The position numbers were made by a program, and so were the translations under genes. Positions 29,343-60,371 of a stretch of 64,000 bases of DNA are shown in pieces (position 1 is the first letter of the stretch; each line of letters opens with the position of its first letter). The stretch comes from Escherichia phage PNJ-9. The stretch lies in the sequence record PQ100635.1; one strand, given 5' to 3'. The notes under the pieces were generated by a model. That model did not search any database. It was not told the origin of the DNA and saw only the letters and a program-made list of their open reading frames with translations.

Positions 29343-29417
29343 GGCCCTGTAGCTCAATGGGAGAGCTGTCAGCTCATAACTGATAGGTAGCTGGATCGAA
29401 ACCAGCCAGGGTCACCA
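29343..29417 (+). tRNA. tRNA with CAT anticodon (Met, or lysidine-modified Ile)
   Basis: Hand-folded cloverleaf: acceptor GGCCCTG/CAGGGTC, D-arm GCTC-AATGGGA-GAGC, anticodon loop CTCATAA, T-arm GCTGG-ATCGAAA-CCAGC, 3' ACCA encoded. Confidence 0.75.
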
Positions 29418-29420
29418 ATC

Positions 29421-29497
<77 letters not shown>

Positions 29498-57002: not shown

Positions 57003-57032
57003 TATAAATACCCTTATCTAATATGGTAAGGG
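57003..57032 (+). promoter_or_regulatory. T4-type late promoter (TATAAATA) plus SD-containing hairpin upstream of gene 49
   Basis: Exact TATAAATA 57003-57010; inverted repeat CCCTTA (57011-57016) / TAAGGG (57027-57032) whose downstream arm overlaps the gene 49 SD. Confidence 0.55.
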
Positions 57033-57038
57033 TTTATT

Positions 57039-57512
57039 ATGTTATTATCTGGCAAATTATACAAAGAAGAAAAACAAAAATTTTATGATGCACAGAATGG
57101 TAAGTGTCCTATTTGCCACCGTGAATTAGACCCTGATGTTCAAGGTAACCATCTTGACCACGACCACGAATTAAACGGGCCAAAAGCAGGTAGAGTTCGT
57201 GGGTTACTCTGTAATCTGTGCAACGCAGCAGAAGGCCAAATGAAGCATAAGTTCAACCGTTCCGGTCTTAAAGGACGTGATGTCGACTACCTCGAATGGC
57301 TTGAAGCTCTTCTTGCTTATTTGAAACAAGATTATTCTGATAATAATATCCATCCTAATTTTGTTCCAGACAAAACTAAAGAGTTCTCAAGACTAGGTAA
57401 AGAGGAAATGATGGCTGAGATGCTTCAAAGAGGATTTGAATATAATGAATCTGATACCAAAACACAATTAATAGCTTCATTCAAAAAGCAGCTTAGAAAG
57501 AGTTTAAAATGA
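57039..57512 (+). CDS. 49: endonuclease VII (Holliday junction resolvase) gp49
   Basis: 157-aa ORF MLLSGKLYKEEKQKFYDAQNGKCPICHRELDPDVQGNHLDHDHE...; near-identical to T4 gp49 as recalled. Confidence 0.9.
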   Translation: MLLSGKLYKEEKQKFYDAQNGKCPICHRELDPDVQGNHLDHDHELNGPKAGRVRGLLCNLCNAAEGQMKHKFNRSGLKGRDVDYLEWLEALLAYLKQDYSDNNIHPNFVPDKTKEFSRLGKEEMMAEMLQRGFEYNESDTKTQLIASFKKQLRKSLK

Positions 57513-58046
57513 AAATTGAAAAAGAAATTGAAGGATTAATTCATAAAACTAATAAAGATCTTTTGAACGAGAATGCTAATAAAGATTCTCGTGTTTTTCC
57601 AACTCAACGGGACCTTATGGCTGGTATTGTGTCTAAGCACATTGCCAAAAATACGGTCCCGTCTTTTATTATGAAAGCACATGAAAGCGGAATTATCCAT
57701 TTCCATGATATTGATTATTCTCCTGCTCTTCCATTTACTAATTGCTGTTTAGTCGATTTAAAGGGGATGCTTGAGAATGGATTTAAATTAGGCAATGCTC
57801 AAATTGAAACGCCTAAATCGATTGGTGTTGCTACTGCAATTATGGCACAAATTACTGCGCAGGTTGCTTCCCATCAATACGGTGGAACTACATTTGCGAA
57901 TGTAGATAAAGTCCTTTCTCCTTATGTTAAACGCACCTACGCAAAACATATTGAAGATGCAGAAAAATGGCAAATCTCTGATGCGTTGAATTATGCCCAA
58001 TCTAAAACAGAAAAAGATGTCTATGACGCGTTCCAGGCGTATGAGT
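57509..58046 (+). CDS. nrdD: anaerobic ribonucleoside-triphosphate reductase NrdD, exon 1
   Basis: ORF from ATG 57509; predicted 5' splice site after T58046, where exon ATGAGT pairs with the intron guide GCTCAT ending in a U-G pair; the downstream stop is intron-encoded. Confidence 0.75.
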
Positions 58047-58257
58047 TAATTTAATTCAGGCTCATGTAAAACCGGTCTAAACGGGGAACCTCTCTAGTAG
58101 ACAATCCCGTGCTAAATGTTCTTTTGAACTAAATGCCTAACGACTAACCGTGATGAATGTAGCGGTGTAGAATAGAAGCTAATGCTATTCGAAACGGCCG
58201 GCATCGAAAGATGAAGATATAGTCTAATCTGCATGGCGACATGCAGCAGTCATCTTG

Positions 58258-58265
58258 TATAAATA
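58258..58265 (+). promoter_or_regulatory. T4-type late promoter (TATAAATA) inside the intron, upstream of the endonuclease ORF
   Basis: Exact TATAAATA 30 nt upstream of ATG 58295. Confidence 0.55.
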
Positions 58266-58294
58266 AGATTATCTTATGAATACGAGGTGAAACA

Positions 58295-59065
58295 ATGAAA
58301 TGGATAAAAAGACGTTGTACTAAAATAAAAGATAAAGACGCATTTACATACTTAGTTAAGTTTTCTAATGGTGACATTTATATCGGTTATAAAAAATTTA
58401 GAACAATTAAAAACAAGCCCACAAACTGGAAAACTTACACAACGTCATCTAAGTATATAAATGAACGCTTAAAAACTGATACACCTACTAAATGGATAAT
58501 TTTAAAAACATTTGATAGTTATAAAGATGCATTAAAACATGAAGAAGAGGTCATACGTAAATATTTTTATAGCAAAAAATGTTTAAATAAATCCATAGGC
58601 GGTAAAAAGTTTTATAAGCATCCGGATACTGAAGAACATATTCAAAAATTAAGAGATGCTCATAAGGGTAAAGTGTTATCCGAATCTCATAAAAACAATA
58701 TAAAATCTTCTGTAGCTGAATATTATGCTAAAAACGGAAGATCTAAGGAACATGTGCAAAATAATATCAATAGTCGAAAAAGTAAAAAACAAGTATCGAT
58801 AAAGCTTAAAAATAAAACTTTTAGAAGTTTTAAAAAAGCAGCGGAATATTTAAATTGCACTGAAAGTGAAGTCGAAACTCATCCTCTTGTTTTGAGTATT
58901 AAGACTACTATTCATAAAGTTCCTGAATATGTGGTTGTTGACGGTATTAAGTATACGTCTTATATAGAAGCAGCTAAAGCGCTAAATTTTCATCCTAGCA
59001 CTATAAAAGAACGTTGCATATCTATGGACTATCCAAATTTTGTTGTTTCATATAAACGGGCATGA
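58295..59065 (+). CDS. intron-encoded GIY-YIG homing endonuclease (I-TevII-like)
   Basis: 256-aa basic ORF inside the intron; GIY-YIG-like motif TYLVKFSNGDIYIGYKK; position matches the T4 nrdD intron endonuclease. Confidence 0.7.
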   Translation: MKWIKRRCTKIKDKDAFTYLVKFSNGDIYIGYKKFRTIKNKPTNWKTYTTSSKYINERLKTDTPTKWIILKTFDSYKDALKHEEEVIRKYFYSKKCLNKSIGGKKFYKHPDTEEHIQKLRDAHKGKVLSESHKNNIKSSVAEYYAKNGRSKEHVQNNINSRKSKKQVSIKLKNKTFRSFKKAAEYLNCTESEVETHPLVLSIKTTIHKVPEYVVVDGIKYTSYIEAAKALNFHPSTIKERCISMDYPNFVVSYKRA

Positions 59066-59091
59066 ATTTGCGACTCATGCTGAATATAATG

Positions 59092-60371
59092 ATGAAGTAA
59101 ATACACTTTTCAGCTCTAATGGACAAACGCCTTTTGTAACAATTACATTTGGCACGGGAACTGACTGGACTGAACGAATGATTCAGAAAGCAATTCTGAA
59201 AAATCGTATTAAAGGTCTTGGCCGTGACGGGATAACTCCTATTTTCCCTAAACTTGTTATGTTCGTTGAAGAGGGTGTCAATCTTTATAAAGACGACCCG
59301 AACTACGATATTAAGCAGCTTGCTTTAGAATGCGCAAGCAAAAGAATGTATCCTGATATTATTTCAGTTAAGAACAATAAAGCTATTACTGGTTCTTCAG
59401 TTCCTGTTTCTCCGATGGGCTGTCGTAGTTTCTTGAGCGTATGGAAAGATTCGACTGGTAATGAAATTCTTGATGGACGTAATAATCTTGGTGTTGTAAC
59501 ACTGAATCTTCCTCGTATTGCATTAGATTCTTATATTGGAACACAATTCAATGAACAGAAATTTGTTGAGCTATTTAATGAACGAATGGATCTGTGTTTT
59601 GAAGCTTTGATGTGTAGAATTAGTTCTTTAAAGGGTGTTAAAGCAACTGTAGCTCCTATTCTTTACCAAGAAGGTGCATTCGGGGTTCGTCTTAAACCTG
59701 ATGACGATATAATTGAGTTATTTAAAAATGGTAGAAGTTCAGTGTCCCTAGGATACATTGGTATTCACGAATTGAATATTCTTGTCGGACGTGATATTGG
59801 ACAGGAAATTTTAACTAAAATGAATGCTCGTCTTAAGCAGTGGACTGAAAGAACCGGTTTTGCTTTTAGTTTATATTCTACTCCTGCTGAAAACCTTTGT
59901 TATCGCTTCTGTAAACTTGATACAGAAAAATATGGAAGTGTAAAAGATGTCACCGATAAAGGCTGGTACACTAACAGTTTCCACGTTTCAGTAGAAGAAA
60001 ATATTACTCCATTTGAAAAGATTTCTCGTGAAGCCCCATATCATTTCATTGCAACAGGCGGTCACATTTCTTATGTTGAACTTCCAGATATGAAAAATAA
60101 CTTAAAAGGTCTTGAGGCTGTCTGGGATTATGCTGCACAACATTTAGATTATTTTGGTGTTAATATGCCAGTAGATAAATGTTTTACATGTGGAAGTACT
60201 CATGAAATGACTCCTACTGAAAACGGATTTGTTTGTTCAGTTTGTGGAGAAAGTGATCCTAAAAAGATGAACACCATAAGAAGAACATGTGGTTATTTGG
60301 GAAATCCGAACGAACGCGGATTTAATCTCGGTAAAAATAAAGAAATCATGCATAGGGTTAAACACCAATGA
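59092..60371 (+). CDS. nrdD: anaerobic ribonucleoside-triphosphate reductase NrdD, exon 2
   Basis: Splicing 58046 to 59092 restores ...FQAYE-Y-EVNTLFSSNGQTPF...; C-terminal Zn ribbon CFTCG...CSVCG and glycyl-radical motif RRTCGYLG. Confidence 0.85.

Follow-up and report, generated by a model that had tools for sequence, protein, structure and literature searches.

An nrdD intron with an I-TevII-like endonuclease gene in a Mosigvirus-like phage: a predicted group I element diverged from that of phage T4

We analyzed a window of 64,000 nucleotides of Escherichia phage PNJ-9 (sequence record PQ100635.1) at nrdD, which encodes the large subunit of the anaerobic ribonucleotide reductase. Among phages, the window comes closest to Mosigvirus and there to PNJ-6 (98.6% over 25 kb). 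Here nrdD is interrupted by an intron that contains a further open reading frame (Table 1). Exon 1 matches the Pfam NRDD profile at positions 1–141 (E=4.4e-40), and exon 2 takes up the same profile at positions 145–562 (E=5.8e-123) and also carries a Gly_radical match (E=1.4e-25). When joined, both exons form a frame of 1818 nt for 605 amino acids with one stop, which is terminal, and the protein reads DAFQAYE-Y-EVNTLF over a Tyr codon split as T/AT. In a focused E-value scan, the complete Rfam Intron_gpI model (positions 1–253 of 253) matched at 58015–58246 with 74.0 bits (gathering score 50, E=1.4e-18). A scan of the whole window at gathering thresholds returned two tRNAs only; it missed the intron because of its speed filters. 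Two snoRNA-like Rfam matches at 59082–59170 had E values of 3.7 and 5.6, far under gathering, and were discarded as chance.

Table 1. Features of the nrdD locus in the window (positions in the 64,000-nt stretch)
Feature	Position	Strand	Evidence
nrdD exon 1 (179 codons and base 1 of Tyr180)	57509–58046	+	Pfam NRDD
nrdD exon 2 (Tyr180 bases 2–3, 425 codons, stop)	59092–60371	+	Pfam NRDD, Gly_radical
Group I intron, nrdD/sunY type, IA2-like fold	58047–59091 (1045 nt)	+	Rfam RF00028, intron-less alleles, covariation
P1 hairpin (exon ATGAGT 58041–58046, loop, guide GCTCAT 58060–58065)	58040–58066	+	Sequence, minimum-energy fold, covariation helix 1
Catalytic core P3–P9	58072–58246	+	RNAalifold and pair counts, five introns
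P3	58072–77/58196–201	+	
P4	58081–86/58105–110	+	
P5	58091–93/58099–101	+	
P6	58111–12/58135–36	+	
P6a	58118–21/58126–29	+	
P7	58142–46/58220–24	+	Hand-placed; invariant
P7.1	58147–51/58162–66	+	
P7.2	58170–75/58185–90	+	
P8	58202–05/58210–13	+	
P9	58229–35/58240–46	+	
Hairpin, predicted to sequester the endonuclease Shine-Dalgarno in read-through transcripts	58250–58290	+	Folding energy, T4 counterpart
TATAAATA, T4-type late promoter box, in hairpin 5' arm	58258–58265	+	Exact match
Operator-like sequence, putative autorepression site	58270–58289	+	Likeness to intron-less homing site
Homing endonuclease gene, I-TevII-like, 256 aa, ATG start	58295–59065	+	BLASTP, Pfam, PHROG
P9.2 hairpin, 3'-terminal intron domain (ORF stop 59063–59065 in 5' arm)	59059–59081	+	Folds, covariation
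Conserved 3' terminus CTGAATATAATG, terminal G59091	59080–59091	+	Homologous termini in relatives

Exon 1 ends in TATGAGT with T58046 as its last base, the intron ends in CTGAATATAATG with G59091, and exon 2 begins with ATGAAGTAAAT; the predicted ligated junction reads GCGTATGAGT/ATGAAGTAAAT. The intron boundaries are exact. In 12 of 12 intron-less alleles, i.e., PP216085 and 11 IMG/VR contigs, the gene reads TATGAAT/ATGAAGT continuously across the site and is colinear with the window at the junction, with exactly these 1045 nt absent. The fused junction matches in one place in about 617 phage records. Moreover, the nrdD introns of T4 (1033 nt) and U5 (1031 nt) occupy the same insertion site, and across the junction all of these alleles encode one protein sequence. 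The sequence-only reading had called a group I intron in nrdD, placed its splice junctions after T58046 and G59091, expected joining to restore the frame through QAYE-Y-EVNTLF and proposed an alignment with intron-less nrdD as a check, and all of this was borne out. Judged from the sequence, a mobile, self-splicing group I intron very probably interrupts nrdD in this Mosigvirus-like T-even phage.

Database annotations present the locus differently. In all six GenBank or RefSeq annotations of this intron variant that we examined, nrdD appears as two genes with an endonuclease between them, and feature names in the match tables suggest that most of the about 44 records with the variant do likewise. 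KX130865, MT682709 and OQ076693 list a homing endonuclease besides a pair of unjoined 'large subunit' CDS, and a TTG-initiated ORF runs from 59040 to 60371. Taken literally, nrdD would hence be two separately translated genes around a free-standing endonuclease, with no RNA splicing. This is scarcely credible against a complete covarying group I core, whose P1 and terminal G lie exactly where the intron-less alleles run continuous, and a break that splits a Tyr codon of the NRDD domain. Also, the T4 homologue is annotated as a spliced nrdD, its CDS joined from two pieces, with a 'group 1A intron', and the T4 td, nrdB and nrdD introns are self-splicing (PMC2988022). A spliced nrdD in the window is correctly annotated as join(57509..58046,59092..60371), and 58047..59091 as an intron feature.

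The fold of the intron is conserved and covaries. P1 consists of the pairs A58041-U58065, U58042-A58064, G58043-C58063, A58044-U58062, G58045-C58061 and U58046.G58060, i.e., exon ATGAGT and guide GCTCAT pair and end in a U.G pair read directly from the sequence, just as had been proposed. Over five related introns, 96.2% of the cells were paired, compared with 35–39% in slid controls, and both sides had changed in 35 of 70 pairs, a value that none of 500 shuffles reached. P7 is invariant and therefore uninformative for covariation. P7.1 and P7.2 were 100% paired with compensatory changes, and in P9.2 (helix 14) both sides had changed in five of seven pairs. When we deleted the ORF, the window intron folded to P1, P3–P6a, P7.1, P7.2, P8, P9 and P9.2; a stem at 58250–59051/59089–59095 in this fold was rejected as an artefact of the artificial join. 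The 3' termini of the T4 nrdD, T4 td, rV5-like and Felix-like introns are homologous to CTGAATATAATG. P7.1 and P7.2, extra helices between P7 and the 3' strand of P3, define subgroup IA2, and from their presence and the absence of P2 we judge the fold to be IA2-like.

Other pairings in the 3' part of the intron are less firm. In P9.0, A59089-U59090 may pair with A58227-U58228; it is weakly supported because it was 70% paired with one compensatory change. P10 is likewise weakly supported in the window intron. At its base, P9.1 pairs less well in the window than in T4: put in the T4 register, the window sequence has about three Watson-Crick pairs and an A.G by manual reading, and helix 13 was 84% paired over the five introns. 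By eye, a tertiary contact between L7.2 and L9.2 is possible (GC/GC, which becomes GU/AC in td).

From this structure, splicing would proceed as follows. In the pre-mRNA, P1 would form between guide GCUCAU and the exon end AUGAGU, and its U.G would lie at the splice site. The P3–P9 core together with P7.1/P7.2 and the remote 3' domain (P9.1, P9.2 and G59091) would then catalyze two transesterifications, which would join T58046 to A59092 and yield the 605-residue NrdD.

Like its T4 counterpart, the ORF within the intron occupies a loop 3' of the core; it is homologous to I-TevII. BLASTP aligned both proteins collinearly over their full length with two gaps and 144 of 257 aligned columns identical (56%, E=1e-101). 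The product has a GIY-YIG N-terminal domain and a NUMOD1/HTH-type C-terminal region according to profile matches. PF19835 SegE_GIY-YIG scored 26.6 bits with the full protein and 31.2 bits with residues 1–112 (cutoff 25, profile positions 11–119 of 123), NUMOD1 scored 25.3 bits (cutoff 22.8) and PHROG 314 'homing endonuclease' matched with E=3.6e-29. The general GIY-YIG model PF01541 remained at 13.5 bits, under its cutoff of 22.6. The earlier description of a 256-residue GIY-YIG ORF stands, with the qualification that the GIY-YIG assignment is a prediction that hangs on one subfamily model just over its cutoff. Candidate motif residues, picked by eye, are FTY 17–19, YIG 29–31, E83–85 and N98. 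We did not use a MAFFT placement of I-TevI on the I-TevII-like proteins for catalytic residues, since it misaligned GIY and YIG. In the PDB, no sequence matched the ORF at E≤10, and NCBIfam had no match for either the window ORF or T4 I-TevII. A single-sequence AlphaFold2 model of the ORF (mean pLDDT 49.8, pTM 0.25) was too poor for a fold search. I-TevII itself is counted among the active GIY-YIG enzymes, and the T4 nrdD intron among the mobile introns (PMC2988022, PMC1865063).

Expression of the endonuclease is probably controlled at the hairpin that precedes it. The hairpin has a folding energy of −17.3 kcal/mol (z=−5.1, none of 200 shuffles as stable), and its T4 counterpart is similar (−15.3, z=−5.2). 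The Shine-Dalgarno sequence GAGGTG (58284–58289) lies in the 3' arm and within the operator-like segment, and the 5' arm spans 58250–58260. For I-TevII, sequestration of the ribosome-binding site in such a hairpin has been described (PMC2988022). An own late promoter with the box TATAAATA had been proposed for the ORF from the sequence. The exact box is present and aligns with TATAAATA upstream of T4 I-TevII; its number in the AT-rich window lies within chance, i.e., 14 occurrences compared with 8.35 expected, with 4 of 100 shuffles reaching 14. Positional homology with T4 and the hairpin around the box suggest that TATAAATA acts as a late promoter. In early read-through transcripts the ribosome-binding site of the endonuclease would be locked in the hairpin, and late transcripts, starting just 3' of TATAAATA, would be without the hairpin 5' arm and could be translated. 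Moreover, 16 of the 20 positions in the operator-like segment agree with the intron-less L004 junction, a match attained by 1 of 500 shuffles, and from this we propose a putative autorepression operator. An analogous similarity of operator and homing site has been proposed for I-TevII (PMC2988022).

The T4 nrdD (sunY) intron is the obvious reference for the window intron. Both interrupt Tyr180 of a 605-residue NrdD at the identical site TATGAGT/...G/ATGAAG, use guide GCTCAT, lack P2 and contain P7.1/P7.2. In both, the P9.1 loop, 3' of the core, holds an ORF whose final codons and stop overlap P9.1/P9.2 and which is preceded by a TATAAATA box and a ribosome-binding-site hairpin. Site, guide and architecture would hence also be expected if the element were the T4 intron with I-TevII itself and the window were T4. 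This is extremely improbable, and the alignments refute it. In a global alignment, the core was 75% identical, the ORF 63.5% (56% for the protein) and the 3' tail 61.5%, against 92% for exon 1 and 94.5% for exon 2, i.e., the introns have diverged far more than the exons. The introns differ in length (1045 vs 1033 nt), as do the ORFs (256 vs 258 residues), and a megablast match to T4 records covered just 42 nt, at the td-intron locus (about 142 kb) and not in the nrdD intron. Again, the nearest relative of the window is the Mosigvirus PNJ-6, not T4. P5, P6a, P7.2, P8 and P9.2 differ in sequence with pairing kept, P7.2 being longer and P8 shorter in the window, and the pre-ORF hairpin has an extra inner stem-loop. 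The window variant occurs in Mosigvirus and some Tequatrovirus, but not in T4, PST or RB59. Judged from these alignments, the window intron and the T4 nrdD intron are homologous but belong to separate, diverged sister lineages.

The view that this is expected T4 biology therefore holds for the kind of element and its site, but the phage is not T4 and the intron is not T4's own. The nrdD intron had been correctly called, yet it is essentially ordinary phage biology and leaves the established picture of how such elements act unchanged.

The core also resembles introns at other sites. The segment 58076–58117, from the P3 3' end to the P6 5' strand, is identical to the T4 td intron at 42 of 42 positions, in agreement with the sequence-only reading, which had recognized td in the core. 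The td intron shares the fold, as judged from P7.1/P7.2, a 3' terminus of the form CUGAAYAUAAUG and regulation by late promoter and hairpin. Unlike the window intron it sits in another host gene, uses another guide, has P2 and carries its ORF in the P6 loop; I-TevI, about 24% identical in the alignment, has a canonical PF01541 GIY-YIG domain besides a zinc finger and a DNA-binding domain of its own. Introns in nrdD of Felixounavirus and Vequintavirus (JohannRWettstein, navn) belong to the same host gene family, have guide GCUCAU and a homologous 3' domain, and contain core blocks of 40–42 nt (58130–58170) that are 97.6–100% identical to the window. They occupy another nrdD site (SPMG/CR, about 120 codons downstream, junctions read from the sequence) and carry their ORF in the P6 loop, an HNH homing endonuclease in several records and annotated as a hypothetical protein in navn. 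The ribozyme core might conceivably be a recombinant mosaic of blocks common to the td intron and to nrdD introns of unrelated phage families.

About 44 GenBank phage records of Mosigvirus and Tequatrovirus contain the window intron with 99.7–100% identity, so that 0–3 of its 1045 nt differ. The nrdD exons of phages that share it are 4–12% different from the window, and perfectly identical exon tracts are confined to 16–50 nt on the upstream side of the intron and to between 22 and about 100 nt on its downstream side. A near-identical intron in diverged exons with short identical exon tracts is a signature of recent homing. An IMG/VR scan for the intron 5' end, run with a degenerate pattern that fits both lineages, returned a single T4-type copy but no window variant, and a full-text literature search returned no paper describing the variant.

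Degenerate copies of the intron occur in other phages, i.e., a frameshifted ORF in three records and a 479-nt intron with deleted ORF in phage 215Ecol030PP, so that endonuclease activity of the window ORF is not guaranteed. Such copies, together with a conserved GIY-YIG Arg position that is not clearly alignable, would fit a decaying relic that still splices, is immobile and has a dead endonuclease, like the T4 nrdB intron. For the window intron we consider this very unlikely: the ORF is intact, at least 18 other records share its exact amino-acid sequence, both the regulatory hairpin and the promoter box persist, and the distribution over two genera, with short co-converted tracts in diverged exons, points to recent spread driven by an endonuclease.

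I-TevII cuts 13–15 nt downstream of its insertion site. By analogy, the window enzyme would cut intron-less nrdD near the insertion site in a mixed infection, and repair off the intron-bearing genome would copy the intron together with short exon flanks. It is conceivable, if on balance doubtful, that the variant represents a second, experimentally uncharacterized nrdD intron/I-TevII lineage that is far older than the split of its hosts and is now sweeping Mosigvirus and Tequatrovirus by homing. The endonuclease, 44% unlike I-TevII, could have an altered recognition or cleavage specificity; it might, for example, cut I-TevII-resistant alleles or compete with the T4-type intron for the site. 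Comparison of two I-TevII variants with 56% identity on a nearly identical target could reveal the basis of specificity in a little-studied GIY-YIG enzyme.

Two deeply diverged intron lineages at one nrdD site offer a clean natural case of old introns that moved recently, in which transfer leaves measurable co-conversion tracts. Exon position −2 was G in 10 of 10 intron-containing alleles and A in 12 of 12 intron-less alleles examined. In P1, this G supplies the exon side of a G-C pair, and the change from A to G travels with the intron.

Joining the nrdD exons across the predicted group I intron restored a single open reading frame of 1818 nt with one terminal stop, encoding 605 aa and reading ...DAFQAYEYEVNTLF... 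across the junction. The first nrdD half matches positions 1–141 and the second half positions 145–562 of the Pfam NRDD profile, i.e., the two halves abut inside the domain. Six P1 pairs can be read from the sequence between the exon end ATGAGT and the guide GCTCAT, the final one being U58046.G58060.

Features of the interrupted nrdD gene and of two introns at another nrdD site (slash, insertion point)
Feature	Coordinates	Details
nrdD exon 1	57509–58046	ends ...GCGTATGAGT
Intron 5′ end	from 58047	starts TAATTTAATTCAG, then guide GCTCAT at 58060–58065
Late-promoter-type box TATAAATA	58258–58265	exact motif match
Endonuclease ORF	58295–59065	256 aa, I-TevII-like
Intron 3′ end	59091	ends ...CTGAATATAATG
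nrdD exon 2	59092–60371	starts ATGAAGTAAAT
Felix O1-like intron	L007 1925–2665 (MZ501086)	nrdD site ...SPMG/CR...
rV5-like intron	L008 1925–2675 (MN850642)	nrdD site ...SPMG/CR...

A 400-nt query of the fused exons matched 685 phage records, about 617 of these in one place. The intron-less nrdD of vB_EcoM_HZ_ZJUN4 reads ...GCTTATGAAT/ATGAAGTAAAT..., with no bases at the junction, and 11 intron-less alleles from IMG/VR show the same uninterrupted junction. T4 has its nrdD intron at the identical position (1033 nt, CDS annotated as joined; 1031 nt in the version of phage U5), and the 39 amino acids spanning the junction are invariant across all nrdD alleles compared. Comparison with other phages fixes the predicted intron boundaries independently. 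The sequence-only reading had proposed this intron with its splice junctions, a P1 helix ending in a U-G pair, and a restored frame, together with an alignment to intron-less nrdD as a check; sequence, Rfam and intron-less alleles agree with it on all these points, and overall its coordinates and interpretation were both correct. Public annotations treat the locus differently. In all six records examined (KX130865, MT682709, MN580668, OP870146, OQ076693, MW883059) nrdD is given as two separate CDS, with exon 2 begun at an internal ATG or at a TTG inside the intron that corresponds to window position 59040 and overlaps the endonuclease gene, and none of the six contains an intron feature or a joined nrdD CDS.

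At gathering thresholds, Rfam found two tRNAs only in the whole window and did not detect the intron. A focused scan of 57900–59250 matched Intron_gpI over the full model with 74.0 bits (gathering score 50; E = 1.4e-18). For the fold, we aligned five introns with their ORF-bearing loops removed, i.e., those of the window, T4 nrdD, T4 td, Felixounavirus nrdD (L007) and Vequintavirus nrdD (L008). RNAalifold recovered P1, P3, P4, P5, P6, P6a, P7.1, P7.2, P8, P9, P9.1 and P9.2 from these five, and 34 of the 68 pairs showed compensatory changes. P7 was placed by hand afterwards, as was a tentative P9.0. With P7 and P9.0 included, 96.2% of cells held standard pairs and 35 of 70 pairs had changed on both sides, values attained by none of 500 shuffles. 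Sliding the 3′ partners by 1–3 columns brought pairing down to 35–39%, a somewhat flattering control because alignment and consensus structure were derived from the same five sequences; the both-side pair changes are stronger evidence for the fold. Between the window and T4 nrdD introns, P3, P6a, P7.1, P8 and P9.2 differ in sequence with pairing kept, and the window intron without its ORF, folded alone, yielded the same helices. The P9.1 base looks weaker in the window intron than in T4. P2 is absent and P7.1/P7.2 are present, as in the T-even IA2 pattern. Two further helices are highly tentative manual readings: P9.0, formed by A58227-U58228 and A59089-U59090, and a P10 of four pairs (58055–58058 with 59093–59096).

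The intron-borne protein aligns collinearly with T4 I-TevII from end to end (56% of positions identical and 72% positive; E = 1e-101). Pfam SegE_GIY-YIG (cutoff 25) matches its N-terminal part, scoring 31.2 bits on residues 1–112 and 26.6 bits when the full protein is used, and NUMOD1 matches residues 171–193 (25.3 bits, cutoff 22.8); T4 I-TevII falls slightly under the same cutoffs. The general GIY-YIG model stayed below threshold at 13.5 bits. PHROG 314, 'homing endonuclease', was hit with E = 3.6e-29, sequence searches against PDB and NCBIfam gave no match, and an AlphaFold model from the single sequence was of too low quality for use. I-TevII is classed as GIY-YIG in a review (PMC2988022), in agreement with the T4 annotation, and its family is evidently a divergent GIY-YIG branch. 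The I-TevII homology and the SegE_GIY-YIG score above cutoff thus bear out the embedded GIY-YIG ORF that the earlier reading had claimed. The specificity of the diverged endonuclease could differ from that of I-TevII.

Ahead of this ORF, a hairpin at 58250–58290 (−17.3 kcal/mol, z = −5.1) has the Shine-Dalgarno region as its 3′ arm, while its 5′ arm overlaps TATAAATA. The equivalent arrangement is found in the T4 nrdD intron (−15.3 kcal/mol, z = −5.2). For I-TevII, the ribosome-binding site is hidden in read-through transcripts and becomes accessible when late transcription begins within the hairpin (PMC2988022); by analogy, hairpin and late promoter would regulate the window ORF likewise. The box had been called the late promoter of the ORF. 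It is present, but TATAAATA alone is no rarer than chance across the window, and the late-promoter reading therefore rests on context. Nucleotides 58270–58289 share 16 of 20 positions with the intron-less junction (1 of 500 shuffles was as good), a hint of a putative operator resembling that proposed for I-TevII autorepression (PMC2988022). For the window intron and its endonuclease, we infer splicing, expression timing and cleavage.

The alignments rejected identity with T4's own nrdD intron and show a separate, diverged element. With megablast, T4 records matched the window intron through a 42-nt block only, which sits at the td-intron locus (~142 kb) and not in the T4 nrdD intron. Global alignment to the T4 locus gave identities of 92.0% for exon 1, 75.1% for the core, 63.5% for the ORF, 61.5% for the 3′ tail and 94.5% for exon 2. 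Judged by sequence, the window element and the T4 nrdD intron with I-TevII are sister lineages, and the kind of element is well known. The core of the window intron is identical to the T4 td intron at 58076–58117 (42/42), and a 40–42-nt block at 58130–58170 is 97.6–100% identical to the Felixounavirus/Vequintavirus nrdD introns; the T4 nrdD intron is unlike the window in both segments. This suggests a mosaic core, with segment exchange or recombination between phage introns. The Felix O1-like and rV5-like introns occupy a different nrdD site and carry their ORF in the P6 loop; they share the guide GCUCAU with the window intron but pair it with AUGGGU. At the equivalent site (~59408–59420) the window reads ATGGGC/TGT, without an intron. 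In phage navn the annotation divides nrdD into several pieces, and the gene may contain more than one intron.

A tblastn search with the ORF found 76 phage records, 40 at ≥99%, 4 at 95–99% and 32 below 60%. No match lay between 60% and 95%, so the lineages are two and discrete. Among the matches listed, the lowest class is mostly T4-type I-TevII (~56%) with a few distant seg-like genes (31–34%), and all three of the 95–99% class are frameshifted; frameshifted copies are MT682712, MZ170041 and PP434423. At least 80% of the intron is present in 43 records, with 99.3–100% identity among the matches listed, and the variant is already in about 44 public genomes, its carriers belonging to two genera, Mosigvirus and Tequatrovirus. 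The intron of vB_EcoM_SYGD1 equals that of the window at all 1045 positions. Five carrier phages differ from the window by 0–3 intron positions, with nrdD exon segments 87.5–97% identical; about 60 intron differences would be expected at the exon rate. Perfectly identical flanks extend over just 16–50 nt of exon 1 and 22 to ~100 nt of exon 2. This contrast is the pattern that endonuclease-driven homing with co-conversion would leave, a mechanism that has been established in T4 for its td and nrdD introns (PMC2988022, PMC1865063). Phage 215Ecol030PP (PP328843; L005 1701–2179) carries a natural deletion derivative of this same intron, 479 nt long, lacking 566 alignment columns (most of the endonuclease ORF) and 100% identical in the ribozyme parts; the 50 nt of exon on either side of it match the window at only 90%.

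Exon position −2 (58045) is G in 10/10 intron-plus alleles of both lineages and A in 12/12 intron-less alleles, a synonymous change (GAG or GAA, Glu). G pairs with C58061 in P1, whereas an A.C mismatch would result from A. It appears that the change was co-converted along with the intron, or selected for splicing.

The closest relative of the whole window is Mosigvirus phage PNJ-6 (98.6% over 25 kb). Gene 49 (endonuclease VII, 57039–57512), with a further TATAAATA box immediately upstream (57003–57010), is ~80–82% identical to T4 and other Tequatrovirus and 95–97% to Mosigvirus, whereas the adjoining nrdD exon 1 is 88–97% identical to both; relatedness thus changes sharply at the gene 49/nrdD border. 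At 60368–60371, nrdD and nrdG overlap directly by ATGA, so the window is without the free-standing endonuclease variably found between them, i.e., the HNH gene mobC in T4 and segH in SYGD1, F2 and others. Rfam and ARAGORN both place adjacent tRNA-Met (CAT) and tRNA-Arg (TCT) genes at 29343–29497; the tRNA cluster of T4 comprises eight.
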